From: an uncultured bacterium | Lineage (GTDB): Bacteria > UBA8481 | Assembly (NCBI GenBank): GCA_964499705.1 | Contig: CAZCME010000011.1 | Coordinates: 62,001 to 126,000 of the forward strand | Direction of reading: 5' to 3' | DNA: 64,000 nt | In this document: positions 19,358 through 58,226 of the stretch, piece after piece | How the letters are laid out: each line of letters starts with the position of its first letter | Numbering within the stretch: position 1 is the stretch's first letter | Position numbers and translations under genes: made by a program | The notes under the pieces: generated by a model | What the model was told of the DNA's origin: nothing | What the model saw: the letters and a program-made list of their open reading frames with translations, nothing else | Databases searched by the model: none

Positions 19358-19372
19358 TGGCACTGCCTTTGC
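19358..19372 (+). promoter_or_regulatory. sigma54 (-24/-12) promoter
   Basis: TGGCACT-GCCT-TTGC, ~70 bp before ATG 19445. Confidence 0.75.
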
Positions 19373-19444
19373 TCTCTTCACGCTTGTGTTTGCCTGCGCC
19401 GCATTCTACTCGTGGACTTTCAGCCTGACGGCTGAGATCACGCA

Positions 19445-20266
19445 ATGACCGACAGTCCCGGGTCAAAAGATACCGCCGAAGACCGCGTGGAGTTCGTTAT
19501 CATGAAAACAAGAGAATTTCTCGCGCCCTACATGGATGTCGAGAATTTTTCTTGTGAGCTGGCGGCATTTGAGACTCGCTTCAGGCGGCGCACCGCGAAA
19601 GCCAGAGTTGACGATAGCAAGAGGTTGATCGAATCGCAAACCGTTCTTCTGGCGTATGCGGCATGCGCCGCGGCGGAGATTAGACTTCGTGCGGCTCACA
19701 GAGTAGTCAAGCAGGCGCGGGAGGATGAGGAACTCGCTGACGCATTTCATACTCTTGCAGTAAAGCGAGTGATTCAGGAGATTCAGCGAGGAGGCGACCC
19801 CGCCTCTCTCGCGGAATGGAGGCTCGATTTTGGCAGTTGTGTTCTGCTTCCGATCCGCGAAAGAAGTCATTGGCAACGAAAGACCGCCGAGTTCGTCGTC
19901 GAAATGCTGGATATGTCGCCCGACGAACTGGGGATAATCGCGTCCGCGGTTGAAACCCCGGACAAAGCGCCCGCGAACATCCAGCAAATTGAAGACGAGC
20001 TTAATTCGGGCATGATCGCCTTCTTTGCGGATCTCGCGGAATGGCTGATCGCGGCGCAGGATCAGGATCGCCAGACACTGAAGCGCGTCCTTTCCGACAG
20101 TGGGTTCGCAAAGACTGTTTCTGCCGCCGCGGCAGGGCCGAAACCTCTTAATTTTATCGCGGGGCTGATTGTCGAGATCGGCGCAGTGGCGATAGACGCG
20201 CCCGCCGCTCTCGGAAAGGATGACGATAGACAGCAGCAACTCGTCGTGGCGCGCTATGTTCATTGA
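19445..20266 (+). CDS. hypothetical alpha-helical protein
   Basis: 273-aa ORF, first gene of co-oriented cluster. Confidence 0.6.
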   Translation: MTDSPGSKDTAEDRVEFVIMKTREFLAPYMDVENFSCELAAFETRFRRRTAKARVDDSKRLIESQTVLLAYAACAAAEIRLRAAHRVVKQAREDEELADAFHTLAVKRVIQEIQRGGDPASLAEWRLDFGSCVLLPIRERSHWQRKTAEFVVEMLDMSPDELGIIASAVETPDKAPANIQQIEDELNSGMIAFFADLAEWLIAAQDQDRQTLKRVLSDSGFAKTVSAAAAGPKPLNFIAGLIVEIGAVAIDAPAALGKDDDRQQQLVVARYVH

Positions 20267-20474
20267 TTCGCAGAATCCCGATTGTGATGATGGCCAAAGG
20301 TAAGCGGCTTTGTTCACGCAACTCGCGGCCGCTACGCTCGGCACTCTCCAGCGCCGCCGCCTCCGTTCTACGTTGCGGTGAAGGCCTGAATGATTATCCA
20401 ACACTTCATGTGGTCAGGCGACGCGGAATGACCGACGGGATCGACGTAACCGTCATCCAGAAGGCGGCTCTCGC

Positions 20475-22004
20475 GTGAACGACCGTCACAGCCGGATCAC
20501 GATCGTGACCGGGCAGTGCAATGGCATCCGCGATCAAGACAAGCTGTACACATCATTGGATCTGGTGACCGGATACTTAGCCCGTACGATTCTCGCGTGG
20601 CCCCCCTCAAACCTTCGGTGCGTGCTCGGAGCCATTTTTGCCCGGGTGCCAATATTTTTAATCGGAGGCGCAGGCGTTGGAAAGACGCTTTTGATGAAAA
20701 CGATTGCAGCGCTGGCTGGCGAGGGAACGGCGTATCACTACGATTTATCTACCTGCGACATTTTCCATTTAGTGGGTCTCCCTGACGTGAGCAGTTACCG
20801 CGCGGATGGTAACCAGGACCTCGCTTTTCGCACGCACTCGCGGAGCCTTCTAAGGAATCCCGGCTATATATTGTGGGACGAAATATCTCGTTCCACTTGC
20901 GAAAACCAGGCCCTCCTCATGGAAGCGATCGAATCATCATCCGTGCTCGGATTCAAAATCACCAGCCGTCACATTCTAGCCTCGAATCCGACCGGCAACG
21001 GCTTCAAGAGCGTTCATGGCGTAGATGCGGCCTTGGCGGACAGGGCACTCGTCACGTTGAACGTCGACCAAGGAGCGTGGGTCTCAAATCCGGAGCGAGC
21101 GGGCAGATACGTCGTGCAGGCGCTCGACGGACTGGAATTCGGATCAGCCCCGACTGATGAGGAGAGGGCGGCCTTTGCCTTTCTCTCAAACGCAGTCCCA
21201 ACTGCGGCCTCCTCACTCCTGCAGAGCTTCCTCCGCGACGACGATCGACGAGCGGGTCTTGCGACGTTTACCAAGGAACTGGCGATGCATGCTTCGTCGC
21301 TGGGAAAGGTGATCTCAAACCGGGTCCTCGTACGAACAGCACGTTTCCTGCCCTATCTCATCCTTCTGAACAAGGGAGACACGGAGTCTGCTGTCCGTGA
21401 TTGCGTCACAGCTTGCTTCCAGCACCGGTGCGAATTGCAGGAAGAGGCTGTCTCGCTCTGCGCGCGACATGCCTATGAGGGCTTGATGATGCCGGATAAT
21501 CCGGAGCGCGAGCTGATCTCCTGTCTTGCTCGCGACGGCATCGAGATCTCTCTAAAAATCGAGGCCATGCGGGAAGCGCCGGCCAATCTCGATCCAAGCG
21601 CGTGTCTGTCAACACACATCAAGGGCCTCCTCCCCGCGCTCGACTCGAATGCGGCGCACCTGGAATCTGCGCTTGGCGTGCTACAGGTGTGGAATGCACG
21701 GAATCCTCGCTGGGGTGAGACGTTTCAGATATTCAGAGACGCTCTCGTTTCCCGACGAGCGCGATTGCTTGCGGAGGAAGCGAATGCCGCATTGCCCTCT
21801 GAGCGAGACGAAACCGATCTGGATGTCCCATCCTTTCTACGCTGGAATCGACATCAGGCTGGCAACGTCGGCGTCCCGGTATTTGGTGACAGGGTGAACC
21901 GCGTTCCTGGCGCGGGCATCTGGGCGGATCTCGAGGCGCGCCATGCGAAAGTGCTCCAGAGCATTCCGGAAACGGAGGATGTCAATGACGACGTGCCCTT
22001 CTGA
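20475..22004 (+). CDS. MoxR-like AAA+ ATPase
   Basis: Walker A GGAGVGKT, LVGLP, Walker B ILWDEISR, ENQALLMEAI, sensor-1 ASNP, Arg finger DAALADR. Confidence 0.8.
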   Translation: MNDRHSRITIVTGQCNGIRDQDKLYTSLDLVTGYLARTILAWPPSNLRCVLGAIFARVPIFLIGGAGVGKTLLMKTIAALAGEGTAYHYDLSTCDIFHLVGLPDVSSYRADGNQDLAFRTHSRSLLRNPGYILWDEISRSTCENQALLMEAIESSSVLGFKITSRHILASNPTGNGFKSVHGVDAALADRALVTLNVDQGAWVSNPERAGRYVVQALDGLEFGSAPTDEERAAFAFLSNAVPTAASSLLQSFLRDDDRRAGLATFTKELAMHASSLGKVISNRVLVRTARFLPYLILLNKGDTESAVRDCVTACFQHRCELQEEAVSLCARHAYEGLMMPDNPERELISCLARDGIEISLKIEAMREAPANLDPSACLSTHIKGLLPALDSNAAHLESALGVLQVWNARNPRWGETFQIFRDALVSRRARLLAEEANAALPSERDETDLDVPSFLRWNRHQAGNVGVPVFGDRVNRVPGAGIWADLEARHAKVLQSIPETEDVNDDVPF

Positions 22005-23376
22005 AGCCCGCTCAGCGACCGAGCGCGAGTGCATTGCGTTCGGCATCCGATTGGCTGCCGCATTTCGGGAGCGGGAAAAAACGCTTCGCGATGTGCTGGA
22101 TGCAGAGAAGACGGTTCGACGGGAATCAGGGCGGAATTTCTGTCGCCTGCCCGCCACGCTTGGCCCTGAGCTGACGAATCCCGAGGACAAGGCAACGCTC
22201 CTGCAATTTCTGAGCGAGAGCCTGGTAAAGGACATCGAGGAATCCGGACTGATTGAACGCGGCCGACCGAAGTCCTCTCGCGGCTTTCTCTTCAATGCAT
22301 GGCTTGGGGACAATGAGGAGTTCTGGCTGACTGCGTTGGGTGGATCTGCCGAGGCCATCGCGATTGGTGTATCGACGATGCTCGCCGCAGTGGATCTTCA
22401 GGATACGGAAGAAAATGCACTGATCGGACCTTTTCAGCGGTTCGTCACGAGCACTCGCCTCGGTTTCTCCGTACTTCGCGTCTGGATCCGGGAAAGTAAT
22501 GTGGATGTGGTCCATGACCGGATTGGAGCGGCCTTCTATAACGGAAAGATCCAGCAACCTGTATCTCGTCAACGGAATGGAATACTACTTCGAGAACTGC
22601 GTGAGCGGCTCAAGGCGAATCGCCTCAAAAGCCGCAGGCGCTCTGTCGGACTGATCAATCTATTGATCGGCCTGACGGTTCGGAGCGGCTCGATCGCAGA
22701 ATACAGGCGATCCGAAGCAGATCTCTGGCGCGGGGACGGACGAGGAGTAGATTTATTTTCACCGGAAAGAAATATGATGAGGGTGCTCTACGGTGCCACC
22801 GCGGTCAGTTTCCGCCCGGAGGATCAGAAGGCTGATGATCCAGTTCGGGCCATACGCAGAAAACTTGTGTCGAAGGAGTTGACACCGGAGAGCGCGCTCT
22901 CTGAACTCCTGTTCGCGAAGATCGGCGCAAAAGACACACTGGAGCTTGCCTCGCTCATTGCCATGCTCGATGGCTCGAATCAATGTTGCTCGATTCTCGA
23001 TGGTTTCCGGCAAATCGTGGTGGACTCCTCGCGCAGTGGGAAAAAGCTGAACGCCTTTCTCGTCAAGAATGTGATCCAGGGAATCATGAATGCGCTGGAA
23101 AAGATTCTCGAACCGCAGCCGAACCTCGCACCGAACGAGTATTTTCTGATACCTCAGTCTCCGGGAGCGTGGCTGCTTGTGCCGGGAGCGGTTCCCGCCC
23201 TTCTCAGCTCTTCCGCGCTCTTTCGCATTGTCGAAAGCCGGGACGTCGGCACCGCTCCATTTCATCTGCTGCGCGGCAGCGATAACGGCCAGCCATTTCT
23301 CGATGGATGCATGCCACCCTATTTCAGGAAGCTGGGATTTATTCTGCCGGACGGAATCGACAGGATCGCCGGATGA
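21985..23376 (+). CDS. hypothetical protein between MoxR and vWA genes
   Basis: RBS ggagg; overlaps both neighbours. Confidence 0.6.
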   Translation: MTTCPSEARSATERECIAFGIRLAAAFREREKTLRDVLDAEKTVRRESGRNFCRLPATLGPELTNPEDKATLLQFLSESLVKDIEESGLIERGRPKSSRGFLFNAWLGDNEEFWLTALGGSAEAIAIGVSTMLAAVDLQDTEENALIGPFQRFVTSTRLGFSVLRVWIRESNVDVVHDRIGAAFYNGKIQQPVSRQRNGILLRELRERLKANRLKSRRRSVGLINLLIGLTVRSGSIAEYRRSEADLWRGDGRGVDLFSPERNMMRVLYGATAVSFRPEDQKADDPVRAIRRKLVSKELTPESALSELLFAKIGAKDTLELASLIAMLDGSNQCCSILDGFRQIVVDSSRSGKKLNAFLVKNVIQGIMNALEKILEPQPNLAPNEYFLIPQSPGAWLLVPGAVPALLSSSALFRIVESRDVGTAPFHLLRGSDNGQPFLDGCMPPYFRKLGFILPDGIDRIAG

Positions 23377-24863
23377 AATCCGCCGGCGATCTTCGCGATC
23401 TGTGGGATATCGTCCACGCCGCCGCATTCTCGCTCAGGTTCGGTCCGGAATTGGTCTCGCGCATCCGGCTGACCACGGAGGATAACGGAAGCATCGCATA
23501 CTGGTGCTCAGTGCAGGAACCAGGTGGAGCACAAAGGGCGGGTGCTCCGAGGAGCGACTATCGCATATGCATCAACGCTCCCTTTCTGCACCGCGCCCTG
23601 AATGATTCGCGACCGGATTCGAGATTTTCCTCCGGAAAGGATCGTTGCCGAGCTGTTGTCGAATATCTTTTGGTGCATGAAGCCGGTCATCAGGCGCTCA
23701 GCGCGAAAATGGTCGGTTCCCATCGACTTGCCGCCAATGCCGATGCCACGAGAAGGGCGATCGTCAATCTGGTTGAAGATGCTGCGATCGACCGACTATT
23801 TGTGCACGCGGCACGGAATTCCAATTCGGAACTGGATCAGCGCATCCGGGCTGGAATGAGCGTGTCGAACGAGACCGCATTCTCAAGCAGGCCGGACAAA
23901 GGAATAAGCAATCCCGCCATCTTCGCTTGCGGGGAAGAGTGGGCGGAGAAAGCGGCGCCGGATTCGCGGCTGCATCGTAGGATGTGGGAGCCGCTGCCGG
24001 GCGGAATGTCGATACCGGAAATGTGCGTAGGGCTTAGACCCTGGAAAAAATACATACGCATTCTGCCGGCCCCGGTTCTGGCAGAGTGGGTGCGACCGGA
24101 TGGAACGGGCGAGACCATGAGAGCGTGGGAGAGGCAGTTCGTAGAGGGTATTCCGGGCGTGCCGATCCGGATTCCCGACGAACTGCGAAAGCGCCTATTT
24201 GGCTCTGCGGATCTCCGCGAGCATTTTTGCATCCGACCGGGACCGGACGAAGCGATCTTCGCGCGAATTGCTGAGGAACTGGCTGATCTTTTCGAGCCGG
24301 AGAAGATGACAAAAAGCAGTCCCGCCGTGACGAACCCGACGCGATCCGCGCTGACCCGGATCGCGCTCGGAATTCCCGCCGCGAGTTACAGTAACCATTC
24401 ACGAGGGCCGGCGAAACGTCCAACCGTGCTGATCGATACGAGCGGCTCCATGGTAGCCGGGGCATGGCTCAGTCGTATTGTGCGGTTGTCGCTTCATCTC
24501 GGCCCCCGATTCTTCCCGAGCGAGCTGTACCTACACGAGAGCGGACCCCCGCGACGGACGAGACTGGAAGCTGTCTGCGCCGGCCAATTGTCGGGCGGTG
24601 GCGGAACGTCGTTCGATGCCTATGGGCAACTGCTGAAAGATGGCGTGATCGATCATCGCTCCTCGATTCTGCATATCACGGACGGATGCGGATCGCTGTC
24701 CGAAGAAACCATTCGGGACGTGAACGCCGCAGGTCTGCGAATCCTGGTGCTCCTTGCCGGAGACGATGCATGCGCCAGCGAGGAACCGCTCGATCAATTT
24801 CGGCCGCGGCCGAGGTTCATCCGATGGAATCCGGAAGCTGAAAGCAGGAACGTCGATGAGTGA
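23373..24863 (+). CDS. HExxH metallopeptidase-like + vWA domain protein (DUF2201-like)
   Basis: LVHEAGH, NLVEDAAID; MIDAS IDTSGSM, GGGGTSF, ITDG. Confidence 0.75.
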   Translation: MKSAGDLRDLWDIVHAAAFSLRFGPELVSRIRLTTEDNGSIAYWCSVQEPGGAQRAGAPRSDYRICINAPFLHRALNDSRPDSRFSSGKDRCRAVVEYLLVHEAGHQALSAKMVGSHRLAANADATRRAIVNLVEDAAIDRLFVHAARNSNSELDQRIRAGMSVSNETAFSSRPDKGISNPAIFACGEEWAEKAAPDSRLHRRMWEPLPGGMSIPEMCVGLRPWKKYIRILPAPVLAEWVRPDGTGETMRAWERQFVEGIPGVPIRIPDELRKRLFGSADLREHFCIRPGPDEAIFARIAEELADLFEPEKMTKSSPAVTNPTRSALTRIALGIPAASYSNHSRGPAKRPTVLIDTSGSMVAGAWLSRIVRLSLHLGPRFFPSELYLHESGPPRRTRLEAVCAGQLSGGGGTSFDAYGQLLKDGVIDHRSSILHITDGCGSLSEETIRDVNAAGLRILVLLAGDDACASEEPLDQFRPRPRFIRWNPEAESRNVDE

Positions 24864-25260
24864 TCGAGAGCGGAAGCGATTTCTGCGCTTTTCCCGAAGG
24901 GATCGCGAGTCGTGCAATTGGCTCATCTCTTTTTTTCTACCGATCGAGGCGTTCGTCCCTCTCTCGATTTCTGGAGTGGAGGCCGTAAGAGCGAAGATGG
25001 AGTGGAAGTATGGATCGCTCGAGGGGCTGAACGCGCACATCGTCGAGACTGGCGTGTACAGGCACGTTGTTCGGATCGCCGAGATCGATGTCTACCACAT
25101 TCGCTTCTGGCGCTGGCTCGCATCTGCACCTCAGGAGGAAGCCGAAAATCTATGCCGGAAACATCTGCCGGCACCGTTGGACCCGCCGTCGGCTTTAAAC
25201 CCCGCGATGATTTCTCATACCCAAGTGGAAAGCCATCAATCCAGAAGATCGAGAGCGTAG
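24856..25260 (+). CDS. hypothetical protein
   Basis: start overlaps vWA stop. Confidence 0.45.
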   Translation: MSDRERKRFLRFSRRDRESCNWLISFFLPIEAFVPLSISGVEAVRAKMEWKYGSLEGLNAHIVETGVYRHVVRIAEIDVYHIRFWRWLASAPQEEAENLCRKHLPAPLDPPSALNPAMISHTQVESHQSRRSRA

Positions 25261-25297
25261 GCATAGCAAATATCAATCGAAGGGGGATCCGGTTCTC

Positions 25298-25960
25298 ATG
25301 AGCGACACTGGCCATCGAAAATCTGATTTGCACGTCACGACGATGTGTTCGAATGCTCCGCACGAACAGAGCACGCTCTCGCGCAGAAGATTTTCCGCAG
25401 GACTCGCAGCCTCTGCCGCATGGGCTATCCTTCGACCGCTGACCGCTCTCGCTGTTGTCGGCGAGGCGCCCGTACTTCAGTGCCTCCCAATAAACCTGCT
25501 TGCTGTAGATCACACGGCGCGGCGGCTCGTAGGGCTCTGGTATCATTCGCTGCTCGAAGCGCCGGCAGTCATGATCAAGGCGTCCGACGATGATTTTGAA
25601 CCGGTGCTCGCCCAGGTCCGCCGATCATGTGAGACCTTTTGCATTCTTGAGGCGACAGACGGCGGGATTGATTCGTGTGAGCGGCATCTACGTGCGACAG
25701 GCGAGCCCGAAATCTTAACCGAGCTCACCATCGATGGCTTGGCCGAATTTCTCGGCAGTGAACTGGCCTTAGGCCTGATTCCGAGCAACCATTTTGTAAC
25801 GGTGGCCTCGGCATTCGCGCTTCACCAGAAGCGCCTGATCGCAGACGAGATTCATCCGAATTCGTTCGTCTTCGTCGATCCGATTCGGGCGGGAGGTCGC
25901 TACGTCGGCGAGTGGGTGGGGTTTACAACGGATATTGCGACTACGAGCGAAGAGGCTTGA
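25298..25960 (+). CDS. hypothetical protein with twin-arginine-like signal
   Basis: LSRRRFSAGLAASAAWAILRPLTALA. Confidence 0.5.
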   Translation: MSDTGHRKSDLHVTTMCSNAPHEQSTLSRRRFSAGLAASAAWAILRPLTALAVVGEAPVLQCLPINLLAVDHTARRLVGLWYHSLLEAPAVMIKASDDDFEPVLAQVRRSCETFCILEATDGGIDSCERHLRATGEPEILTELTIDGLAEFLGSELALGLIPSNHFVTVASAFALHQKRLIADEIHPNSFVFVDPIRAGGRYVGEWVGFTTDIATTSEEA

Positions 25961-26055: not shown

Positions 26056-26295
26056 TCAAAATCGGTCATGATCTCGCGACTCTGATTCGCGCGGTCCTGC
26101 GGGCAATGCTTCCTCGATCGAACTCATCGCTCGCCAGGTGGCTTGCAGCGCCTCGTCCACGCGGCGTTCGATGTTGAGCGCTTCCTCGTCTGATGGGTAG
26201 CGAATATCGCCGGCGAGGTCGTTGGCAGGCTTGAGAAGTCGCTCGATGCATTGAAGCAACCGGTGGAGCCGTGAGAGATGCGGTGCGATGGTCAT
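26056..26295 (-). CDS. small hypothetical protein
   Basis: ATGA overlap with ADP-ribosylglycohydrolase stop. Confidence 0.45.
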   Translation of the reverse strand: MTIAPHLSRLHRLLQCIERLLKPANDLAGDIRYPSDEEALNIERRVDEALQATWRAMSSIEEALPAGPRESESRDHDRF

Positions 26296-27296
26296 TTTTG
26301 CTGGCGACTCCAGACTTCGGTCAGGCCAGTGGCGAGTGTCTCGATGTAATCGGCCTTCCAGCGGCGCTTGTCATGGATCAGCGGAATGTACTGCGAGAGT
26401 GCGGATGGGATTCCGTTGCGGGCGCACGACAGCGAGAGGATCATGGAGGCGTGACTGTCGAGGTCTCCTCCACCGCAGAAGAGTAGCCGCAGGGCCTTGC
26501 ACGGATCGTAGGGATGCTCACTGCAACAATAGAGTGCCCAGCCGACAGAAGTCGGGGTGAAGCCGCTGATGCCGAGAATATCTACAGGATCGGCCTGCTT
26601 TGGCAGCTGGTATCCCTGCGTTACGATTTCGCTCATGACGGTTTCGGGGTGTTGGTGCAGAAGCCCTGGAATTGCCTCGAGAACGGCACTCATCGTGCGA
26701 TCAATCCGCCGGATTTCTGGAAGAATTATCGCGATGGCATCGATTGGACTCTTCCGCGCCGTGACGTATTCTCGGGTAAAGAGCGCGATCGCAACTGCTC
26801 CGGCGACGGCTCGACGATCGGAATGGGTCAGGCGCGCGAGCGCGGCGGCATCCTTCGCGACACTTTCGCGATCCCGATGCCATAACCCGGTCAACCCAAC
26901 TCGCATGGCCGCCCCGTTTCCGGCCATGCCATCCGGCGCAGCGCATGCGTCGCGCGGCGACTTCTCGATAAAGCGCTTGAATGCGTAACGACTTGCATGC
27001 CCGGCGCCAACGAGATGATTTTTCTCCCATTCCCTGCTCATACGGCGCATCACATCGTCGAGATCGATCGCCGCATTCTCGCAGATCGATTCCGCGAGGA
27101 CGAGCGTAAGTTGAGTGTCGTCGGATACCTGGCCTTTGACTCCATGCCGAACTCTTTGCAACATGTTCAGACCCCGGACGATCTTCTCGCCGAGCGGGGC
27201 GCAAAACGCTCTGGTGCGGCCTTCGAATGGGAGACCAATGGCATCGCCGAGTGCGCACCCAAGCAGGTAATCCCGAAATGGAGGAGGCATCGTCAA
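26292..27296 (-). CDS. ADP-ribosylglycohydrolase (DraG/ARH family)
   Basis: GCALGDAIGLPFEG, SDDTQLT, GNGAAMR, LTHSD, GGDLDS. Confidence 0.9.
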   Translation of the reverse strand: MTMPPPFRDYLLGCALGDAIGLPFEGRTRAFCAPLGEKIVRGLNMLQRVRHGVKGQVSDDTQLTLVLAESICENAAIDLDDVMRRMSREWEKNHLVGAGHASRYAFKRFIEKSPRDACAAPDGMAGNGAAMRVGLTGLWHRDRESVAKDAAALARLTHSDRRAVAGAVAIALFTREYVTARKSPIDAIAIILPEIRRIDRTMSAVLEAIPGLLHQHPETVMSEIVTQGYQLPKQADPVDILGISGFTPTSVGWALYCCSEHPYDPCKALRLLFCGGGDLDSHASMILSLSCARNGIPSALSQYIPLIHDKRRWKADYIETLATGLTEVWSRQQK

Positions 27297-27426
27297 GCAG
27301 GAATCATGACAACAAGGTTCTCATGCGCATCCGGCGCGAGCATAATTCGATGGTTGAAAAAGCGCTTCAGCATTCGTTCAATACGCCTGCAGAGAAGTAA
27401 AAGCTCCCTTTGCTCATCAGCCTCCC

Positions 27427-50057: not shown

Positions 50058-52322
50058 ATGCCATCCTCGATCGATCTTCAAAAAGTAGATGAGGCAATGG
50101 AGATCATTGAAGCGCTTCAGGCGAAAAACTGCGGGCAGCAGGAGGCTACAATGTTAGCCACGCTGATCGAGCAGTTTTCACGCCGCGCAATGCCCGAATT
50201 TATCGACCGGATCAGGAACCACACGGTTTTACGTATGGTCAACGCGGATGGCGATCAGACACAGCTTCAGGCGCTTCGAGAGTCATTAGGAGCATGGTAC
50301 AGCGGGATATTGTTCGGGGATCTACTGTCCTACAACTCCGCTGAACGCGACAGCGATAAAAGGATCGAGTCACGTATGAGGGCGCTGGTTCGTGAGGCTC
50401 TAATCTGGATGCCGAACTCAGTCTTCGCCCAGGTTCTTCTCTATTTCAAAGGTGCCGAGACTCCCATCGTAGAGTGCACCGGGACGAGGGGTTTCCAGGA
50501 CGTCTTGCATATTGAACGCCTCAGGAAAGATACAACCGACTATGCAAAACGAAACGGTTCCTCCGTAACTTGGGACATTCATTTTCGAAATTCGGCAAAA
50601 TGGGACTGGTCTGACGGCGTTAATCAGGTCCGATTAGACGGAATTGCAATTGTAGAGGGAGACGAGATTCGTCCGAACACAGGCGTGGTTATCTCGGGTG
50701 CAAAGGCCGAATTCAGAATTATACCAGAATTGTTGGAAGCTAAGCAGGAGGAGTCGGGAGGAGGGGCGTCAAACGGCGAGGAAGATGCTCGAAAACGTGC
50801 GGACGAAAGTGAACCTGGCAAACATTCTAGATTTCTTTCTGACGTTATGTGGCCCTTTTTGAAGGAGATAGATCCTGATGCCCATACAAAGGATGTATTG
50901 GGATTGCTACATCATTCAACCGGATTGGACGTGTACTTCGACGGATTGCCGGACGTCGATAGCAGAGTGAGAGCGCACCTATATTTAGCTTCGCGCGTCA
51001 AAAGATCCACGATTTTAACCGAGAAGCCTGTTTTTCGGTTACCAACTAATTTTCGAAGGACCATGGTATCGCTCCTGTCGAAACTTGCCCACTTCTACAC
51101 AGTACACAGGATGATCGACCAACGGTATGCAGTGACGCGACAGGCCCAAAGATACGACTTGATCAGCCAGCCTCTGGAACGGCTGACGAAGGCTCAGGAA
51201 GAGATTGAGCGAGACGTCAGGATGTTGAGAAACATCATGAATGAGCCTGCAGATGGGATTCTTGCTGAGGTGCGCCGGCTCAGCGAGTTGTTCCGGGAAG
51301 CAGGAACGATGAAATTTAGGACAGCTTCTGGCAAAATTACAATCACACGTAGACACACTGTCAGGAATTATGAACCGAATGAGGCGTTGCTTATTCTTGC
51401 GGAAGCCATAAGGCGACTCCTTCTTCCTCTTAATAAAAGCGCCATCTCTGCGAAATGGCTCTTGTCTATTCGCGCTTTACTCCAAAATGAATACGGCGGG
51501 TTGGCGGATGAAAAATACGCTCAGCTCGAGCGCATGCTGGGTAAGAAATTTCAGAGAGTTCTTGAAAATGTAAATAATTCTGATTTCACAGAGGCCGGGA
51601 AGATTTCTTGTGCCGTCTTATCGGACATTAAGAACTTCTTCCTTCTTCCGTTGAAGGGGGGGGATGAGTCCTATCAAAAACCTCTCATTTGGCCGGCGCT
51701 GTTTGCGTATCTCCCTGCGGGCGTCGAGATTAGGCTATCGATTGTGAGTCCGGACTGGATTCGGAACGAATTTTCTTCTGAAATAATGGATTCTGCCGGC
51801 CTAGCTGAGAAGCTCCCTGTGATCTGTCGACGATCAAACCCCTTCTTTCATTATGGCCCGTTCATTGATTCGTTTCAAAAACTGGTGTTTTCGCACATGC
51901 AGGATGGATCGCGCGACCAGCGAATCAATTCTGTAGTAGTTTGCTACACAATATTCGGTCAAGACACGCCATGTCGTCTTGAATCACTTAATCTGACGGA
52001 GTCGGACGGTATCTCGGTTTCGTTTGGAACAGCAGGAAGGAAATGGATTAAGGATGGAGGAGGCAATATATTAGAGGATCTTTTTACTCGTTTGGCGAAC
52101 CAGGCACAACATGAACTCGATATCGATGTCGAATATGGAAACTTCTTCAGGCCTCTTCAGAAGCTATTCATCACCCGCCGCGCTAGGGGGGGGCTCCTGA
52201 TGAAGTGCAAAAATGATCACGTGAAGTTGCAGTTTGGCGACAGGCTCGTACTTGAGTTTAACGGCTCGGAGTTTTCCATTCATTCCGGCAGCGCGGCGGT
52301 CAAGGAATGGCAAAAGACATGA
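50058..52322 (+). CDS. large hypothetical protein with central coiled coil
   Basis: 754-aa ORF, operonic spacing. Confidence 0.7.
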   Translation: MPSSIDLQKVDEAMEIIEALQAKNCGQQEATMLATLIEQFSRRAMPEFIDRIRNHTVLRMVNADGDQTQLQALRESLGAWYSGILFGDLLSYNSAERDSDKRIESRMRALVREALIWMPNSVFAQVLLYFKGAETPIVECTGTRGFQDVLHIERLRKDTTDYAKRNGSSVTWDIHFRNSAKWDWSDGVNQVRLDGIAIVEGDEIRPNTGVVISGAKAEFRIIPELLEAKQEESGGGASNGEEDARKRADESEPGKHSRFLSDVMWPFLKEIDPDAHTKDVLGLLHHSTGLDVYFDGLPDVDSRVRAHLYLASRVKRSTILTEKPVFRLPTNFRRTMVSLLSKLAHFYTVHRMIDQRYAVTRQAQRYDLISQPLERLTKAQEEIERDVRMLRNIMNEPADGILAEVRRLSELFREAGTMKFRTASGKITITRRHTVRNYEPNEALLILAEAIRRLLLPLNKSAISAKWLLSIRALLQNEYGGLADEKYAQLERMLGKKFQRVLENVNNSDFTEAGKISCAVLSDIKNFFLLPLKGGDESYQKPLIWPALFAYLPAGVEIRLSIVSPDWIRNEFSSEIMDSAGLAEKLPVICRRSNPFFHYGPFIDSFQKLVFSHMQDGSRDQRINSVVVCYTIFGQDTPCRLESLNLTESDGISVSFGTAGRKWIKDGGGNILEDLFTRLANQAQHELDIDVEYGNFFRPLQKLFITRRARGGLLMKCKNDHVKLQFGDRLVLEFNGSEFSIHSGSAAVKEWQKT

Positions 52323-53221
52323 GACGCGCGGATCTAAAAATCTACTGGCATGATCATCGTAGGCATCACCTGTCCCGACCGCATACAGCCGGTTTGGTGG
52401 GATTCGAGACTCTTGCGAATTGGCTAAACGCCCTGCAGATCGAGGCCCCATTCACGTTAAGCAGCGTGAATGGACCCTTTCTTGCTTTAGTTCATGCTGG
52501 AGAATATGAAGACTATGAGGCTTGGGAGAAAGAGGCGGATGATGCTCAAAAGCGATATGTGGTTCTTGTAAGTAGTGAGGGCGAATCCGGCCATAGAGAT
52601 CGTCCACCGGGGGTAGTCGCTCTGTCTGAACCATTGCAGGACTTTATGAAGCATATATCCCAAACCGAAGCAGAGTGGTTCGCATCGACTATCCGGGCTG
52701 GCGACCCGGATTGGACATTTTTTGAAGAGAGAACGCTTGAACTGATGCATGTCCCCGTTCTTGCTCTTCTTTGCCAAGGGTATCTCGCTGTGCACAGCGA
52801 TCCTGATAGCGACGCCGAACCAGAGGTTGATTCTGCTGAGATTGCAAGTTGCAAGGATGCCCTCCATATCATGGGTTGGACCGCGCTGAGGGCTCGCAGA
52901 AAAGAGGCTTCGGAGCGGAATAGGGCCGTCGCCCCTCTATTTGCGGATAGGGCTACTTTGAAGGGAGAAGTCGTCTCTTCAACATGGGATGGTTGGAAGG
53001 CCTTTACCAACCCTGAGGTGGACTGGCGTGGCAAAAGCAAAGAAGAATGGCAGAAGGGTGCGCCGGAAGCAAAATCCGAGTGGCATCTGGTGGAAGCTCT
53101 GTTCGATCAAATAGGCCCTGCTCAAACTCCTGTCACCCCGGGAGTGGTGGCCCGTGCGTATATCGCGGTCGCCGCAAATCTTGGAAATGCCGATGCTCTT
53201 AAAATGATCGGGTCACTCTGA
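52307..53221 (+). CDS. hypothetical protein, N-terminus possibly degenerate receiver-like fold
   Basis: beta/alpha pattern LALVH...YVVLVSSEG; overlaps upstream gene. Confidence 0.55.
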   Translation: MAKDMRRADLKIYWHDHRRHHLSRPHTAGLVGFETLANWLNALQIEAPFTLSSVNGPFLALVHAGEYEDYEAWEKEADDAQKRYVVLVSSEGESGHRDRPPGVVALSEPLQDFMKHISQTEAEWFASTIRAGDPDWTFFEERTLELMHVPVLALLCQGYLAVHSDPDSDAEPEVDSAEIASCKDALHIMGWTALRARRKEASERNRAVAPLFADRATLKGEVVSSTWDGWKAFTNPEVDWRGKSKEEWQKGAPEAKSEWHLVEALFDQIGPAQTPVTPGVVARAYIAVAANLGNADALKMIGSL

Positions 53222-53274
53222 ATGAGCCACTTTATGGCGGAATCCTACGCTATGAATCTTTCCGAGCGCGACGA

Positions 53275-53814
53275 ATGACTGCTTCGGCCTGGCATGAGGC
53301 GTGCAATCGGTTTCATCATAAGTTTCTGAAAAACACGCTTCTGGGTGCGCATCTCGCCTCTCTTGCGGGAGTTTTAGGCCGGCCGGCGCCCGATCTGGAG
53401 GTTGTTCAGGGGCACATTGAGAAAGATTTGCCGATCTGGCGAAATAATAGGGAGACGGCGCAGAGACTGATCGATACCTACGTGGACGAGACCTCTCCAA
53501 GAGTTATTGTCGAGCAGCGGCTTCTGGCCGTTTTATCACGTGAGACCAGATCATGGCTCGGGCCGCTCGTTCACGAGCTTTGGCTAGTCAGAGAGTCGAT
53601 CTTGGAGCGGCAGGACGTGATGAAAACATCTCTTCGGCATATGAATGAGGCATTCGAGGCGCTCATGGCAGCGGCGGAACCGGCGGAATCTATGACTTCA
53701 GAGGATCTTGAAGGGCTCCAGCCCCTCTGTGAAACGCTCAAGGAGCGGTGTGGTGACCTCATTCACGCTTTTGAGGATACTCGATCCGCCGGCAACAGGG
53801 TACTTGTGGCATGA
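53275..53814 (+). CDS. helical hypothetical protein with H-box-like motif
   Basis: WHEACNRFHHKFLKN; ATGA overlap with activator. Confidence 0.65.
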   Translation: MTASAWHEACNRFHHKFLKNTLLGAHLASLAGVLGRPAPDLEVVQGHIEKDLPIWRNNRETAQRLIDTYVDETSPRVIVEQRLLAVLSRETRSWLGPLVHELWLVRESILERQDVMKTSLRHMNEAFEALMAAAEPAESMTSEDLEGLQPLCETLKERCGDLIHAFEDTRSAGNRVLVA

Positions 53815-55601
53815 ACGACCTGCCTCGCATTCTCTTCATCGACGATCAGTATGGCTGGAATCCGAAGGGCGAAAATCGACTCAGAGATTCATACTCACGT
53901 GAGCGCCTCATGTACCAGTCGGCCAGGCCAAAGGTTGTCCTGCGCGAAGAGGCTGTGGCCGAGGTAGTCTTCTGCCCCGGCCAGATCGTCGAAGACGGCG
54001 TGGCGCGCAACGACCTCGATGGAACCCTACTCGCTATTGAATCTGGTTGGTTGGAAAAGGGCCGATGGGCACTTGTGCTCCTTGACCTTCATTTTGCCGC
54101 CGGTCCGATCAGCGCGGACGGCGATTGTGACGGTTTGCCCGAAGACGAGGATCCCAGGCGTTACTTTGGTCTCCGGATACTTGAAGCGATCGCTGCTCAG
54201 CCTCGATTCAGACACTTGCCGATTGTGATTACCTCAGCCATGAATAGAGAGGAGGTCGAGAGCCGATTCTCAAACTTGGGTGCGCTTCATTTTGTTGACA
54301 AGCCTGCACTCACCGCGGACGGACTTCGTGAGATACTTTTTACTCAAGGCTTGTGGTCTGACCCCGAGGCACTGGGGAATTCTCTGCCGTTTCTCATGGC
54401 GCTTCGAGAGATTCGGGTCAGGTGTCGAGGAAAGTCTGAGAACATTCTCATACTCGGAGAAACTGGAACGGGAAAGGAGTTCATGGGCAGGTATGCCCAT
54501 CGTCATTCCGGGCGCTCCGGAGAGTTGGTCACGCTGGGAAATGTGCCCGAGACCCTGATTGAGGACGAGCTCTTCGGTCACGAAAGGGGCGCCTTCACGG
54601 GCGCCGCCGGTGTAAAGCAGGGTCTTGCGGAGCGCGCGGATGGCGGAACGCTCTATATCGACGAATTCGGCGATATTCCCGCGAGTTGCCAAGTTAAACT
54701 GCTACGGCTTCTTGACCGTAATACACGCGAGACGCGCCGCCTGGGCCAGACGGCGCAACCCCGCCGCGTGGACCTTCTCGCGGTAATGGCGACGAATCGC
54801 GTCGATATTCTCGACTCCGGCGATTTTCGCGGTGATCTTCTGCAGCGCGCCAAGATGACTCATCCCGTCATCTTGCCGCCGCTCCGTGATCGCCGGGTAG
54901 ATATCTCTTTGCTCGCCGAGCATTTTGTGCGGCGCTATGAGACAATTCATGGCGCGGAGCGAAGGGAAATAACGGAAGAAGCGATGGATGCCTTGATGGC
55001 ACACGAGTGGCCAGGCAATATTCGGGAACTCGACAACACGATTGATCTGGCGGTACTGAGATTCAAGGGACTTCGCAAGCTCGTTCCCGGACATCTGGGG
55101 CTGACATCGAGCCGTCCACCGGCCTCGGCAAGAGCCGATCGAGTCACCACCGCACGGGGAACTGGAAAGGGCGGCGGCTTGCCCCCGGAAGAACGGAGTC
55201 CGGAAGTCGTATCCGCAGATCATGATATTGTGTTTCAGGATCTTCCTGCCGCACTGGACGCGGTAACCCTAGACCATCTTCAGTATGAGTCGTGGGCAGG
55301 AAAGCTGCCGGAGATTCAGGAGGCAAATAATCGTCTCATTGCGCGGCTTGTCAGGGTTGCGCTGGAGGGCACTCTTCGCCGATCGCTCGACAATAAGAAG
55401 GGAACGGTGCAGATTCACCCAGCGATGAAGGCGTTGACCGGCGACGCGAAACTTACTGCAAGCAAAGCAGCGGATCTGATTAAACGCCTGGCCGGCAATT
55501 CGCCGGTCTTTGTCGAATGGTGTGACGATCCGCTTCTAAAAGAAGCTCTGGAGAAAGCAAAAACCCTGCGCCCGTCGTCCGGCGGAAGAAGGCGCCGGTA
55601 G
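53811..55601 (+). CDS. sigma54-dependent activator (receiver + AAA+ bEBP)
   Basis: ILFIDD/LVLLDL/VDKP receiver; GETGTGKE, ELFGHERGAFTGA, YIDE, ATNR, WPGNIREL. Confidence 0.93.
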   Translation: MNDLPRILFIDDQYGWNPKGENRLRDSYSRERLMYQSARPKVVLREEAVAEVVFCPGQIVEDGVARNDLDGTLLAIESGWLEKGRWALVLLDLHFAAGPISADGDCDGLPEDEDPRRYFGLRILEAIAAQPRFRHLPIVITSAMNREEVESRFSNLGALHFVDKPALTADGLREILFTQGLWSDPEALGNSLPFLMALREIRVRCRGKSENILILGETGTGKEFMGRYAHRHSGRSGELVTLGNVPETLIEDELFGHERGAFTGAAGVKQGLAERADGGTLYIDEFGDIPASCQVKLLRLLDRNTRETRRLGQTAQPRRVDLLAVMATNRVDILDSGDFRGDLLQRAKMTHPVILPPLRDRRVDISLLAEHFVRRYETIHGAERREITEEAMDALMAHEWPGNIRELDNTIDLAVLRFKGLRKLVPGHLGLTSSRPPASARADRVTTARGTGKGGGLPPEERSPEVVSADHDIVFQDLPAALDAVTLDHLQYESWAGKLPEIQEANNRLIARLVRVALEGTLRRSLDNKKGTVQIHPAMKALTGDAKLTASKAADLIKRLAGNSPVFVEWCDDPLLKEALEKAKTLRPSSGGRRRR

Positions 55602-55618: not shown

Positions 55619-57493
55619 TCAGCAGATTCTCGTCACTCGAATAAATCGCAATTGGTGCCACAACTGATATCTCTCGTCTGCATGGCGGCGGATTCTTTTT
55701 TCTTTCTCGGCATGGTGAACGGTTTTCCATTGCAGATCTCCGGAAACCTCGAGGAGATCAAGAGGAACCTCAATAGGCAATGAGACATCAGCCTCAACTT
55801 TATATTTTGAAACATCAATCTTTTGCGTTATGGCCTCTGCTATCTTCTCCCAGTCGAGCAATCCACTTATGACCATGAATATTCGGCCGCCAAGGCTCAA
55901 AAAAGCGGGCCCTGGCTCGATTAGTAATTGTTCCACCAGTTCTTGCCCTTGAAGGGGGTCGCGATCCCGCGCGACCAATGGCTTCTTCTCAGGTAGATAA
56001 GGCGGATTGCACAAAACAACATCCAACTGGTCACGTGGAAGAACGCACGGAGAGGAGTGGCTCAATATGAAGTGCATGCGTGGTTTGTCAGGCTCCTCCC
56101 CGAGAATACTGACAAGATTGTGGCGGCACGTTAACAACGCCCATTCATTGACATCTGTTGCGTAGACCTCTTCCAGAGAATCCTTGTATTGTTCTGTGAT
56201 TCCAGAAAGAAGAAACCCGCTGCCGCAGCCGATCTCGCAGACCCGCTTTGGTCGAAAGTCCTTTTCTTGATACAAAGTGCGGATCAGAAGCGCATGGAGA
56301 TTAAGTGTATCAATCGACGGTCCGGCAACACCCACTTCGGCTTTTACCTCTATCGCGTGTTGCTTGCTCCTGCCGTCGACCCAGCACTGACGTGCCAGGC
56401 GGATCCCTTTGCCTTTCTTAACAAGGTCATCAAGGATCGAATACTCCGAGGAGGGGAGATGTTGAAGATCTCTTATGGGAAGGAGAAGCCGCGGCGCGGG
56501 CAGTCGGCCGAGATATTTTACGGGCGATCCGGTTTCTGCGGCGGCGTCTTTTGTGGGGAGGTGAGCAAGGAGATCCACATAACGTAAGTCCGCCTCGTAT
56601 TGCCCAATGAGAGCCTCTACGTTACCTCTCCCAGGTGCAGGAAACGGGTCGCCGTCGGAGCGGAACTTCAGAAGAAAATCATTTACAACCGCATTAGTTA
56701 CGCTGGCCCATTTACAAAGTTCGCATAGCCGGTTGTAGGTATCGGCGGGAGTATGTCCATCCCGGCGAAAAAGATGTGCGAGAAGGAAATATACGCGAAG
56801 ATATTCTGGGTGGATAACGAGTGCCCGCTTAAGCAGTTCTTTGGCTGTCACTCCATCAGACCATTGAGACTCGGCTTCATTGCAAAGCAAGCTTGCGAGA
56901 TTGAGAGAAACCGCGCGGCGACCGGGCCAGTTGCCGAATATTACGGCATATTCATCCTGGGATATTTCCTGATTTTCTGGAAAGTCATCCCTTTTGCCGA
57001 GCAACTCGCTGCTGGAGAAACCAGGTTCCTTGCTGACAAGTCGATCTGCGAGCGCGGAAGCCTTCTCATTCGCCTTTTTTCGATACGTAAGCCAGTCGAT
57101 CTTCTCACGAAGTTCAATAAAGCAATCATCAGTCAAAGGAAGTTTCTTTAGAAAGAGAGCATCGCAGCCAGAGCGAATGAAAGCTTCATTTACATTGCTT
57201 TGCCCGCTCTGACCGGTCATTCCAATTATCGGAACCTTACGTGAATCGCGTCGCCATTTAAGTAGCTGGTGAAGCACATCCTCCAAACTCAGCTCATCTT
57301 GATTCTCGTCGTAAAAGACGAAATCAAGAATTACGAGATCCACATCATCAAGACTGGTCAGAAGCTCCGGGCTTTTGTATGTTGTTACATTCCAGTCTCC
57401 GTCCCGGCGTAGATTCGCTACGAGCGGTGATAAATGGGAGGTGTCGCACTCGTCGTCGACAAGCGCTATGCGAAGGCTTGATTCGTTGCTCAC
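55619..57493 (-). CDS. receiver domain fused to HemK/MTS-like methyltransferase
   Basis: IALVDDE, LVILDF, PIIGMTG, FLKK; EIGCGSG, TDVN, CNPPY. Confidence 0.82.
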   Translation of the reverse strand: MSNESSLRIALVDDECDTSHLSPLVANLRRDGDWNVTTYKSPELLTSLDDVDLVILDFVFYDENQDELSLEDVLHQLLKWRRDSRKVPIIGMTGQSGQSNVNEAFIRSGCDALFLKKLPLTDDCFIELREKIDWLTYRKKANEKASALADRLVSKEPGFSSSELLGKRDDFPENQEISQDEYAVIFGNWPGRRAVSLNLASLLCNEAESQWSDGVTAKELLKRALVIHPEYLRVYFLLAHLFRRDGHTPADTYNRLCELCKWASVTNAVVNDFLLKFRSDGDPFPAPGRGNVEALIGQYEADLRYVDLLAHLPTKDAAAETGSPVKYLGRLPAPRLLLPIRDLQHLPSSEYSILDDLVKKGKGIRLARQCWVDGRSKQHAIEVKAEVGVAGPSIDTLNLHALLIRTLYQEKDFRPKRVCEIGCGSGFLLSGITEQYKDSLEEVYATDVNEWALLTCRHNLVSILGEEPDKPRMHFILSHSSPCVLPRDQLDVVLCNPPYLPEKKPLVARDRDPLQGQELVEQLLIEPGPAFLSLGGRIFMVISGLLDWEKIAEAITQKIDVSKYKVEADVSLPIEVPLDLLEVSGDLQWKTVHHAEKEKRIRRHADERYQLWHQLRFIRVTRIC

Positions 57494-58065
57494 AGCGAAG
57501 CCTTATTGAAATTTGACAGGAGAACCTCGATATGGCCCCTGGCTTTCCGATACAGGCTGTCGATGGTTTTCACGGTCACTTTTAATTCATCATGCTCCAC
57601 GGAGTTCAGAGCGCGGAGCGCCAGCATACTCTCGTTTAGCCTCTCGATGGCATGTTTTATTCGATTGTGATTCTCGCTGAAATCTGTTCTAGCAAAGAAA
57701 AGATCATCTGTTAGCGGTTGAAGCCATTGTAGATTTGGCTGCCCCTCTGTATTAAGAAAATTCGATGTCGAAAATGGAGTCAGATTCCATGCTGTCAGGT
57801 TCCAGTCCCGAGCGGCGCTATAAGTCTCGTCCCACTTGTCAAAGAGCCAGTTAGCAGCATTATTACGGGAATCCATCTTGCCCATTTCCCTACGGCATTC
57901 GAAGGGACGACTGACTATGTCCGCAAGCTGCCTTAGGAAATCGGTTTTGATAGACCGGGCGCGGTGCCACTTGTGGTCCAAAGCTGTTCGGAGCCGTAGA
58001 AGGGCTTGTGACCAAGGAAATATCGCCATAGCAGAACTATATTCGGCTTCGATAGGATCCGGCAA
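57490..58065 (-). CDS. helical hypothetical protein, remote paralog of 53275..53814
   Basis: LDHKW; WLQPLTDDLFFART...IKHAIERLNESMLAL; GTGA overlap with REC-MTase; start uncertain. Confidence 0.6.
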   Translation of the reverse strand: MPDPIEAEYSSAMAIFPWSQALLRLRTALDHKWHRARSIKTDFLRQLADIVSRPFECRREMGKMDSRNNAANWLFDKWDETYSAARDWNLTAWNLTPFSTSNFLNTEGQPNLQWLQPLTDDLFFARTDFSENHNRIKHAIERLNESMLALRALNSVEHDELKVTVKTIDSLYRKARGHIEVLLSNFNKASL

Positions 58066-58211
58066 GGTCGAGTAGATCTCAGAAAAGTTCCGATCACAAT
58101 TCTGAACGAGACCGCGCCTTGTGCAGGCAGGGATGAAACTGCGAGTATCAATCCGGTTCCGTTGCGGTTTGAATACTGGACGAAGACCGAATATTCCCAG
58201 CAGCCTGTGCG

Positions 58212-58226
58212 TGGCACGTGCTTTGC
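58212..58226 (+). promoter_or_regulatory. sigma54 (-24/-12) promoter
   Basis: TGGCACG-TGCT-TTGC(A), full consensus. Confidence 0.85.

Follow-up and report, generated by a model that had tools for sequence, protein, structure and literature searches.

What keeps the genes of a genomic island silent, and what would switch them on? To our knowledge, defence and conflict islands are usually discussed without an account of how they are switched on, and the cases of control by a bacterial enhancer-binding protein (bEBP) known to us in print are RtcR-type superoperons and the type VI secretion system (T6SS). The question is raised here by a 64,000-nucleotide stretch of DNA (the window, C11:62001-126000) from the assembly of an uncultured groundwater bacterium known solely from metagenomic assemblies (genome G000; 4,666,278 bases in 45 contigs), in which −24/−12 motifs of the sigma54 type stand ahead of several operons. 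Sigma54 closed complexes need ATP hydrolysis by an activator to open, and, as far as we know, sigma54 promoters alone among the bacterial classes show practically no basal activity; for genes that are costly or toxic they are thus a natural safety catch. An original prediction for this DNA held that six such promoters head six operons of a mobile element, all of them switched on by one activator that the element itself encodes at 53811..55601. Our preferred reading, which we think somewhat probable from the sequence, is of a ~60.2-kb tRNA-Met island whose operons are mostly sigma54-headed and would answer to modular activators, with no single one commanding them all.

A genomic island integrated at a tRNA-Met gene

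The region is a genomic island that has integrated at tRNA-Met. On its left side, the 51 nt that close the tRNA gene (17740-17790) are repeated at 77944-77994, in window-equivalent coordinates that continue past the window end (C11:139944-139994), with 50 of 51 positions identical (15 nt, one mismatch and 35 nt); the 14 kb beyond the window are referred to as locus L083, where L083:5932 equals 69932. The G+C content drops from ~0.61 just past the tRNA-Met gene, is 0.51-0.58 inside the island as against 0.60-0.63 in the flanks, and is back to 0.63 beyond the distal repeat. Taken together, the distal repeat and the return of the G+C content give an island of ~60.2 kb, from 17791 to ~77994 (C11:79791-139994, 1.29% of the genome), which runs ~14 kb past the window. 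We also examined its att-like ends (17791-19357 and L083:12650-13994), and an Rfam scan returned only two tRNAs.

The mobility claimed for the element held in part. The tRNA-Met repeats and the low G+C content are those of an integrated island, but no tyrosine or serine integrase or recombinase was found inside it; the genome has three PF00589 matches (on C5, C21 and C27) and one PF00239 match (on C15), and none of these is on C11. All that adjoins the tRNA-Met gene is an excisionase-like HTH_17 protein (17887-18513), with no recognisable integrase or resolvase. The island may have become immobilised, or its recombinase may be one that goes unrecognised, for instance the 303-aa or the 349-aa protein near its right end. 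Elsewhere in the genome, C27 (53.9 kb, G+C content 0.569) carries a tyrosine integrase at 18595-19083(−) and a high-scoring −24/−12 site at 1991(−); this contig may represent another mobile element wired to sigma54.

Sigma54-type sites at the operon heads

To score sites we used the consensus TGGCACG-N4-TTGCW, counting mismatches with the GG and GC held fixed, and a position weight matrix (PWM). All six predicted 15-mers were found at their places and on their strands (19358+, 29507-29521−, 29870+, 38574+, 45209+ and 58212+) and keep the GG-N10-GC spacing; three are perfect TGGCAC-N5-TTGC matches, one has a single mismatch to TGGCACG-N4-TTGCW and two have two. The three TGGCAC-N5-TTGC matches lie far above chance, as had been argued: 100 dinucleotide-preserving shuffles of the window gave a mean of 0.13 and a largest count of 2, so that none of the 100 reached 3, and only seven matches exist genome-wide, three of them in the window (binomial P = 7e-5). 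With at most one mismatch to TGGCACG-N4-TTGCW there are 23 sites genome-wide, five of which fall in the island part of the window where 0.18 would be expected (P = 1e-5). The scan of island against host that had been proposed as a check also came out in favour of enrichment, with seven of the 51 sites that score at least 14 bits lying in the island (0.44 expected, P ~4e-6). Genome-wide, the site at 58212 ranks first, 19358 seventh, 29506(−) 14th, 45209 19th and 38574 41st.

The placement of the sites is equally regular. Seven operon heads carry a site of at least 12 bits on the correct strand (19358, 29506, 29870, 38574, 45209, 58212 and L083:8819), whereas 11 heads of 300 nt each would be expected to carry ~0.07 at the genome density. 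The six sites in the window are correctly oriented at operon heads, as predicted, with the start codon 72 nt (19358), 51 nt (45209), ~240 nt (58212) or 14-15 nt (29506, 29870 and 38574) past the GC. These seven operon-head sites are the strongest argument that the wiring may be real and island-wide.

The host has what such promoters would need. The rpoN gene, whose presence had been named as a further check, is there in one copy (213 bits), and of the 27 Sigma54_activat matches 21 reach at least 131 bits and correspond to ~21 bEBPs, ~19 of them outside the island; with rpoN and this many bEBPs, the host is sigma54-rich and competent. A crude codon-usage gene call placed 34 of the 51 sites of at least 14 bits in promoter-like positions (intergenic or at the 5′ edge of a gene, and co-oriented), 31 of them outside the island; among the genes behind the host sites there seem to be, judged by their N-termini, one of prepilin type, one that is NirB-like and a kinase that neighbours a bEBP. 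Contigs of the DNA runs X1, X3, X4 and X5 were essentially identical to 38400-58350, differing at a few places in single contigs but nowhere in the three sites that they covered; because these runs carry the same sequence, they could not show conservation of the promoters. Scans of L083 for sigma70 promoters and terminators gave no more matches than in shuffles. A look-up of RNA runs for 50058-58500 listed none that contains this stretch.

Short-gap sites in the host and in the island

At three island sites, 29506(−), 29870 and 38574, an in-frame ATG that opens a long open reading frame (ORF) lies at offset 14-15, counted from the base following the −12 C. The sites at 29870 and 38574 have lower scores and lie within the longest ORFs, and this was initially counted against both. 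We then counted, genome-wide, the ATGs at offsets 13-16 that open at least 100 codons. Such an ATG follows 14 of the 81 sites with a PWM score of at least 13, as compared with 1251 of 63,546 low-scoring GG-N10-GC controls (2.0%) and 13 of 456 mid-scoring sites (2.9%), and the histogram of offsets peaks exactly at 13-16. When the island is left out, the host sites alone give 12 of 74 (P = 2e-8), among them C1:281221(+), C8:122983(−) and C2:196841(+). The 12 host genes are not paralogues of one another; from the N-termini, some of them seem to encode a prepilin-type protein, a NirB-like reductase and a sensor kinase that has a bEBP as its neighbour.

In the light of this host-wide enrichment the sites at 29506(−), 29870 and 38574 look genuine, and the geometry points to 29492(−), 29900 and 38603 as the likely starts, which makes ATG 29492 the likely start of operon C. 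The host thus seems to have sigma54 promoters of a class that abuts the start codon, in which the ATG falls at about +3 to +6 and of which the three island sites seem to be members. Such a class would imply near-leaderless sigma54 transcripts; a non-exhaustive full-text literature search found no description of sigma54 combined with leaderless starts, the one listed paper with terms for both drawing no connection between them.

These observations also bear on an alternative in which the promoters are real and mostly driven by the ~19 host bEBPs, while the bEBPs of the island serve their own operons only. The sigma54-rich host fits it, and the island sites share both the host consensus and the unusual short-gap geometry, which suggests that they adapted to a host of this kind or arose in one; in addition, the kinase for the receiver of the activator at 53811..55601, described below, can only be host-encoded. 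However, no binding motifs of the host bEBPs are known, nothing links a host bEBP to the island sites, and the island carries two bEBPs itself, so that we regard this alternative as unlikely.

Two intact activators and a remnant

The predicted activator at 53811..55601 (bEBP1) has intact Walker A (GETGTGKE) and Walker B (GGTLYIDEFGD) motifs and the GAFTGA loop (ERGAFTGAAG), and matches PF00158 at 128 bits. Its AlphaFold2 model (predicted local distance difference test, pLDDT, 83.9) was aligned by Foldseek over the receiver and AAA+ domains with NtrC4, NtrC1, NtrX and LuxO (best 3dzd_A, E 2.5e-24 over 432 columns; also 1ny5, 5m7p and 5ep0). In an alignment of 30 family members (A2), no variation occurs at D11, D12, D92 or S142, and hardly any at K164. 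The modelled N-terminus has the fold, the acidic pocket, the phospho-acceptor Asp, the Ser and the Lys of an NtrC-type receiver, and would be classed as one; it carries a ~25-residue insert, and Pfam finds neither Response_reg nor HTH_8 in the protein. The RtcR models of PADLOC cover just its AAA+ core (residues 211-416). Full-length relatives number ~70, share 38-47% identity and come from metagenomes of several phyla; they form a distinct family, below which the score falls sharply, from 277 to 209 bits, and a Pfam receiver is on record for none of them. When metagenomes were scanned with A2, the best 80 loci included, amid generic bEBPs, at least one partial family member (L084).

The claim of one activator did not survive. 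A second intact bEBP (bEBP2), with the motifs GESGSGKE, GGTLHVDE and RRGAFTGA and a PF00158 match of 164 bits, closes the operon headed by the site at 58212. A third, truncated at its 5′ end, lies directly upstream of the site at 45209; tblastn aligns it with residues 337-411 of bEBP1, a stop lies just upstream of '...VDARIMIATHRDL', neither Walker A/B nor GAFTGA is present, and it is a dead remnant. Both intact bEBPs come last in long operons that have a strong −24/−12 site at the head (45209 for bEBP1, 58212 for bEBP2), and in this position each circuit would reinforce itself. The suggestion that an activator at the end of a sigma54 operon makes positive feedback possible was therefore borne out in its premise, for bEBP1 and for bEBP2 alike.

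We looked for a shared upstream element that could tie the promoters to one of these proteins. No common k-mer, palindrome or inverted repeat was found ahead of the island promoters; the only 8- and 9-mers common to three upstream regions involve two overlapping divergent regions, and footprinting by paralogues gave no alignment of the DNA ahead of the two cassettes, nor of that ahead of modules B and K. TGCGAAT-like words, noticed by eye, were considered as an enhancer and set aside, since 12 in the window as against ~7 per 64 kb genome-wide is not a clear enrichment.

The scheme first proposed, in which bEBP1 alone switches all six or more operons as one regulon, draws on the intactness of bEBP1, on its place at the end of a sigma54-headed operon and on operons B, C, D and E having no bEBP of their own nearby. 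It is also known that bEBPs without a classical DNA-binding domain can act from solution, which would account for the absent common enhancer. Nevertheless, the same island holds a second intact bEBP and a remnant, its promoters have no common upstream motif, the receiver of bEBP1 has no kinase in the island, and in other genomes the sites near bEBP1-family members, where present, adjoin their own module, which suggests local rather than island-wide control. With no shared upstream element, nothing in the sequence favours a single master activator, and we consider this scheme very unlikely.

The bEBP1 module and its 179-aa partner in other genomes

The gene that overlaps the start of bEBP1 encodes a 179-aa helical protein. 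Using the bEBP as query in species-representative genomes, we found a homologue of this protein directly upstream of the bEBP in six of the eight loci with near-full-length family members, and their alignment (A4) has W6, H15, W55, S74, P75, H100 and W103 invariant. The 179-aa protein had no match in the Atlas by features and by structure only generic helical rows (a Hpt row, at TM 0.44/0.53, stayed under the bar), and against the PDB the A4 profile gave coiled coils only (E≥0.065), with Vipp1/PspA-family chains at E 1.7-2.6. A complex prediction for bEBP1 and the 179-aa protein scored 0.54 (runs 0.00, 0.59 and 0.54) as against 0.00 for the best control; the mark is one that 58 of 80 solved complexes and 2 of 110 mismatched pairs attain, but just 7 of the 80, and both passing mismatches, do so at 0.60 or below; the runs agreed on at least 0% of contacts and the partner had a pLDDT of at least 72. 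The prediction weakly suggests that the two proteins bind.

The bEBP1-179-aa module is rare and conserved across phyla: in two phyla with 401 genomes sampled from each, the partner profile had matches in 3 and in 1 of them, counting the centre genomes. Around the module recur ABC components, MTS-type methyltransferases, large unknown proteins and, after the bEBP, pairs of genes of similar size. A homologue of the 304-aa protein of operon H is present in three loci (L003, L004 and L007); L003 carries, behind the bEBP and on its strand, a homologue of the 624-aa protein, and L004 and L007 have similar-sized pairs there. A second copy of the module (304-like, 179-like and bEBP) lies at 3386-5730 of G008:C187 (L171), in the Desulfobacteraceae genome that also holds L007. 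Pfam found no histidine kinase near the module in L004, L006 or L007.

In L006 and L008 (Acidobacteriota) a strong −24/−12 site stands on the same strand 200-250 nt past the bEBP, ahead of homologous small exported cysteine-bearing peptides. These peptides (L006:12095-12310 and L008:4033-4282) have signal-peptide-like N-termini; that of L006 ends in ...TLICTGCR, and that of L008 is cut by the contig end. They could be a secreted signal, or resemble ribosomally synthesised and post-translationally modified peptides. In L007 a perfect site lies past the gene pair that follows the bEBP and is followed by a Shine-Dalgarno sequence and a 63-aa ORF, a position that equals that of 58212 if the 191/624-aa pair is taken as inverted in our island. 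The placement of the sites in L006, L007 and L008 is the only evidence that ties a specific promoter (58212) to bEBP1, and hints at such a link. Two further sites, L004:482 and L003:135, were rejected as promoters, as they lie inside the conserved C-terminus of a LivM-like permease coding sequence.

Operons and gene content

The features of the island are collected in Table 1. Most of the predicted gene labels stood: ARH (ADP-ribosylglycohydrolase), GNAT, Macro, Gp37-68 (DUF5131), methyltransferases and ABC components were confirmed by Pfam, together with three Metallophos and two FGE-sulfatase domains and HipA; the exported proteins of operon J are supported by the signal-peptide-like N-termini of its 308-aa and 517-aa products. 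The label that fell short was MoxR/vWA for operon B, which at E≤0.01 has no Pfam support beyond weak P-loop matches, with no AAA_3 and no VWA. Its 509-aa protein matches the AAA+ modules of midasin with a summed E of 6.8e-9, no single stretch passing alone, and its 518-aa protein shows by eye the motifs HEAGH and VLIDTSGSM (a MIDAS-like DxSGS), with no PDB sequence match. When operon B (19445-25960) was compared with the module at the right end, identity was 67% between the P-loop proteins (the 509-aa protein and its paralogue) and 24% between the genes that follow, but the first genes are unrelated, as is the DNA ahead of them.

Operons D and E begin with a duplicated three-gene cassette (29846-33683 and 38516-42346), the products of which share 47%, 63% and 54% identity. 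The PcfJ-like label of the 737-aa protein comes from Atlas clusters (0.95, low recognition) and is a lead only; the large (~730 aa) cassette protein had no match in PADLOC, and tblastn of the 737-aa and 509-aa proteins against a plasmid collection returned none. The island also has a minus-strand phosphoesterase pair. In operon H the genes overlap or are separated by at most 54 nt. Contigs of two runs from a second study skip 2548 bases at 45173-47722, which hold most of the ABC transporter genes after the site at 45209; the shorter side has just 21 letters, and the skip may be an artefact or come from another organism. Upstream of pair I we found no −24/−12 site of 8 or more on its strand. 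Beyond the window, operon J continues with two AAA+ ATPases, an M50B-like peptidase and bEBP2. The 754-, 304-, 179-, 273-, 477-, 518- and 220-aa proteins had no NCBIfam or PADLOC match, and the 754-aa protein is present in G000 alone among the five genomes of its phylum in the collection compared.

Table 1. Features of the tRNA-Met island, from left to right (window or window-equivalent coordinates; scores in bits where a PWM value is given)
Feature	Position	Strand	Description
tRNA-Met (CAT)	17718..17790	+	Left island boundary, attL side; ARAGORN; Rfam 74.5 bits
−24/−12 site TGGCACTGCCTTTGCT	19358..19373	+	Head of operon B; perfect TGGCAC-N5-TTGC; PWM 16.7; intergenic; ATG 72 nt past GC
Operon B	19445..25960	+	273 aa; 509-aa MoxR-clade-like P-loop protein; 477 aa; 518 aa; 220 aa
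Operon C	26292..29492	−	227-aa unknown (28809-29492), overlapping unknown ORF, GNAT (27687-28334), 87-aa ORF, ADP-ribosylglycohydrolase (26292-27296); Pfam
−24/−12 site TGGCACGGCTCCTGCT	29506..29521	−	Head of operon C; PWM 15.8; in-frame ATG opening 227 codons at offset 14
Weaker −24/−12-like site TGGCCCTTAATTTGCT	29870..29885	+	Head of operon D; PWM 12.2; ATG 29900 at offset 15 opens long ORF
Operon D	29900..38319	+	PcfJ-like 737/719 aa, Metallophos, FGE-sulfatase, 252 aa, Macro, 228 aa, DUF5131, HTH_3 and HipA; Pfam
Intragenic site TGGAACGTCCTTTGCT	30690..30705	−	Antisense in the 737-aa gene; PWM 16.1, rank 9; no long ORF downstream
−24/−12-like site TGGTACGTTTCATGCT	38574..38589	+	Head of operon E; PWM 14.2; in-frame ATG 38603 at offset 14
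Operon E	38603..42346	+	Paralogous cassette: 732/703-aa PcfJ-like, Metallophos, FGE-sulfatase; Pfam
Third bEBP, remnant	44625..45023	+	132 aa, 5′-truncated, AAA lid onward; Pfam AAA_lid_14; directly upstream of the 45209 site
−24/−12 site TGGCACGCATTTTGCG	45209..45224	+	Head of operon H; perfect TGGCAC-N5-TTGC; PWM 15.6; ATG 45275, 51 nt past GC, behind GGAAGAA
Operon H	45275..55601	+	ABC ATPase, permease, NMT1-type binding protein, MTS methyltransferase, RsmB/F-like methyltransferase, 754 aa, 304 aa, 179 aa, bEBP1; Pfam
179-aa partner protein	53275..53814	+	Helical; overlaps bEBP1 start by 4 nt
High-scoring intragenic site	53290	+	Inside the 179-aa gene; rank 49
bEBP1	53811..55601	+	596 aa: receiver-like domain, AAA+ with GAFTGA, disordered linker, helical C-terminal domain
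Pair I	55619..58065	−	191 aa and 624-aa MTS-type methyltransferase-like; convergent with operon H; Pfam
−24/−12 site TGGCACGTGCTTTGCA	58212..58227	+	Head of operon J; 0 mismatches at 12 specified positions; PWM 18.7, best in genome; intergenic, ~240 nt before the 308-aa gene
Operon J, first part	58468..64000	+	308 aa, 164 aa, protein with 4 transmembrane segments, putative lipoprotein, 517 aa, membrane protein
bEBP2	69932-71098 (L083:5932-7098)		End of operon J; 388 aa, PspF-like; sigma54 domain from residue 21; no N-terminal sensor
Right-end module	72830-77561 (L083:8830-13561)		Paralogue of operon B module; headed by weaker site AGGCATGACAATTGCC at L083:8819, 12.9 bits

Discussion

We propose that the host RpoN holoenzyme would read the −24/−12 promoters of the island, and that sigma54 gating would keep cargo that is costly or toxic tightly shut off as long as no signal comes in. 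This cargo would comprise the two MoxR-like/vWA-like modules, the GNAT/ARH operon, Macro, HipBA, the two PcfJ-like/phosphoesterase/FGE cassettes, the methyltransferases and the operon of exported proteins, AAA+ ATPases and protease. Induction of the bEBP1 and bEBP2 circuits would be self-reinforcing, and for operons B, C, D and E the activator may be either of the island bEBPs, perhaps acting from solution, or one of the host.

Several points weigh against this reading. The PWM is heuristic, built from consensus frequencies and not from a curated matrix, and the site at 29870 ranks just 146th with it. Two of the seven island sites of at least 14 bits, 30690(−) and 53290(+), are intragenic, so that a high score alone does not make a promoter; that at 30690(−) is probably not an operon promoter. 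Operon continuity was assumed, for example across the 353-nt gap at 59840-60193 in operon J, and operon H could be a transport and modification pathway and not a weapon. As for the activators, the missing shared upstream element has been described above. No Fis-type helix-turn-helix (PF02954) was found in bEBP1 or bEBP2, and none is on record for members of the bEBP1 family; the C-terminal domain of bEBP1, folded alone (pLDDT 87), had no Foldseek match at E≤0.001, the best Z of 5.3 going to unrelated helical domains and the DNA-binding region of NtrX reaching a Z of 3.9. bEBP1 has a receiver, and none of the 64 HATPase_c matches of the genome places a histidine kinase in the island (C11:79791-139994). 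Finally, in seven of the 11 other family loci (L003, L004, L005, L009, L034, L169 and L171) there is no credible site near the module.

Another explanation is that most sites are not productive, being either places of sigma54 binding with no promoter role or relics of a donor lineage, with the genes expressed from other promoters. Intragenic sigma54 binding is reported as widespread in E. coli (PMC4591121), two of the high scorers here are intragenic or antisense, the bEBP remnant is a piece of decaying circuitry, and no recombinase is left in the island. Yet seven correctly oriented operon-head sites where ~0.07 would be expected, a geometry that fits two coherent classes and two intact bEBP genes speak against it, and we judge it quite unlikely. 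Our preferred reading, a mostly sigma54-headed island with modular activators, can be taken further, to a self-contained circuit in which two bEBPs of different types act as self-reinforcing switches, a conflict arsenal stays off until a signal comes in through a new bEBP family and its obligate 179-aa partner, and part of the arsenal and a sixth of the host sigma54 promoters are near-leaderless; we offer this extended version tentatively, as a possibility that is open to real doubt.

Both activators have relatives among known proteins. bEBP1 resembles the NtrC family (NtrC1, NtrC4, NtrX and LuxO) along the receiver and AAA+ domains, but differs from it in the receiver insert, in the lack of Response_reg and HTH_8 by Pfam, in a C-terminal domain with no fold match, in having no adjacent kinase and in its 179-aa neighbour, which matches no known family. 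bEBP2 is like the PspF type in having an AAA+ core with an intact GAFTGA and no sensor domain. PspF-type bEBPs are controlled in trans; unlike them, bEBP2 has no PspA-like partner by Pfam in its operon, and it ends an operon of exported proteins, AAA+ ATPases and a peptidase.

The original prediction did not recognise the island as a described system, and this stands only in part, since bEBP-headed superoperons (PMC11090510) and the Sfa2 arsenal (PMC8855297) are in print, both of them differing from the island in bEBP type, gene order and cargo. RtcR-like (CARF-AAA+-HTH) sigma54 activators head CoCoNuT and other defence superoperons (Bell et al., eLife 2024, PMC11090510). As described there, they share with the island a bEBP encoded with a long co-directional conflict or defence array (up to >40 kb), a predicted sigma54 switch and a proposed feedback loop. 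Their bEBP, however, has a CARF sensor and stands at the 5′ end, whereas bEBP1 is receiver-like, bEBP2 has no sensor and both are at the 3′ end; and the superoperon is one unit, whereas the island has several separate −24/−12 sites and other cargo. Sfa2 is a cluster-encoded bEBP that coordinates several promoters of a toxin arsenal through RpoN (PMC8855297), and like the island bEBPs it lies inside a conflict gene cluster. It differs, in the account given in that source, in serving a T6SS with targets in dispersed chromosomal islands, as demonstrated by experiment, whereas the targets proposed here lie in one integrated island with two bEBPs and are known from sequence; no T6SS genes were seen in the island.

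Operon B and its right-end paralogue recall the MoxR-vWA ternary conflict systems (Kaur et al., eLife 2020, PMC7159879), as described there, in combining a MoxR-clade-like AAA+ protein with a MIDAS-like protein and further unknown proteins, although Pfam found no AAA_3 or VWA and PADLOC no match, so that the likeness comes from the midasin match and the DxSGS seen by eye. The main text of that paper contains neither 'sigma' nor 'enhancer' (0 occurrences), and sigma54 control of MoxR-vWA modules is thus not described in it. What sets the island apart from the printed cases is the types of its activators and their place at the ends of operons, how many separate promoters it has, its cargo and the short-gap class.

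If our preferred reading is right, the island would be a clear example of horizontally moved cargo that travels with its regulatory logic and depends on the RpoN of the recipient, and this dependence would constrain where such islands can function. The short-gap class, if real, bears on how sigma54 open complexes fit with leaderless translation. bEBP1 and the 179-aa protein form a rare module of a cross-phylum family, and offer a defined pair for study.

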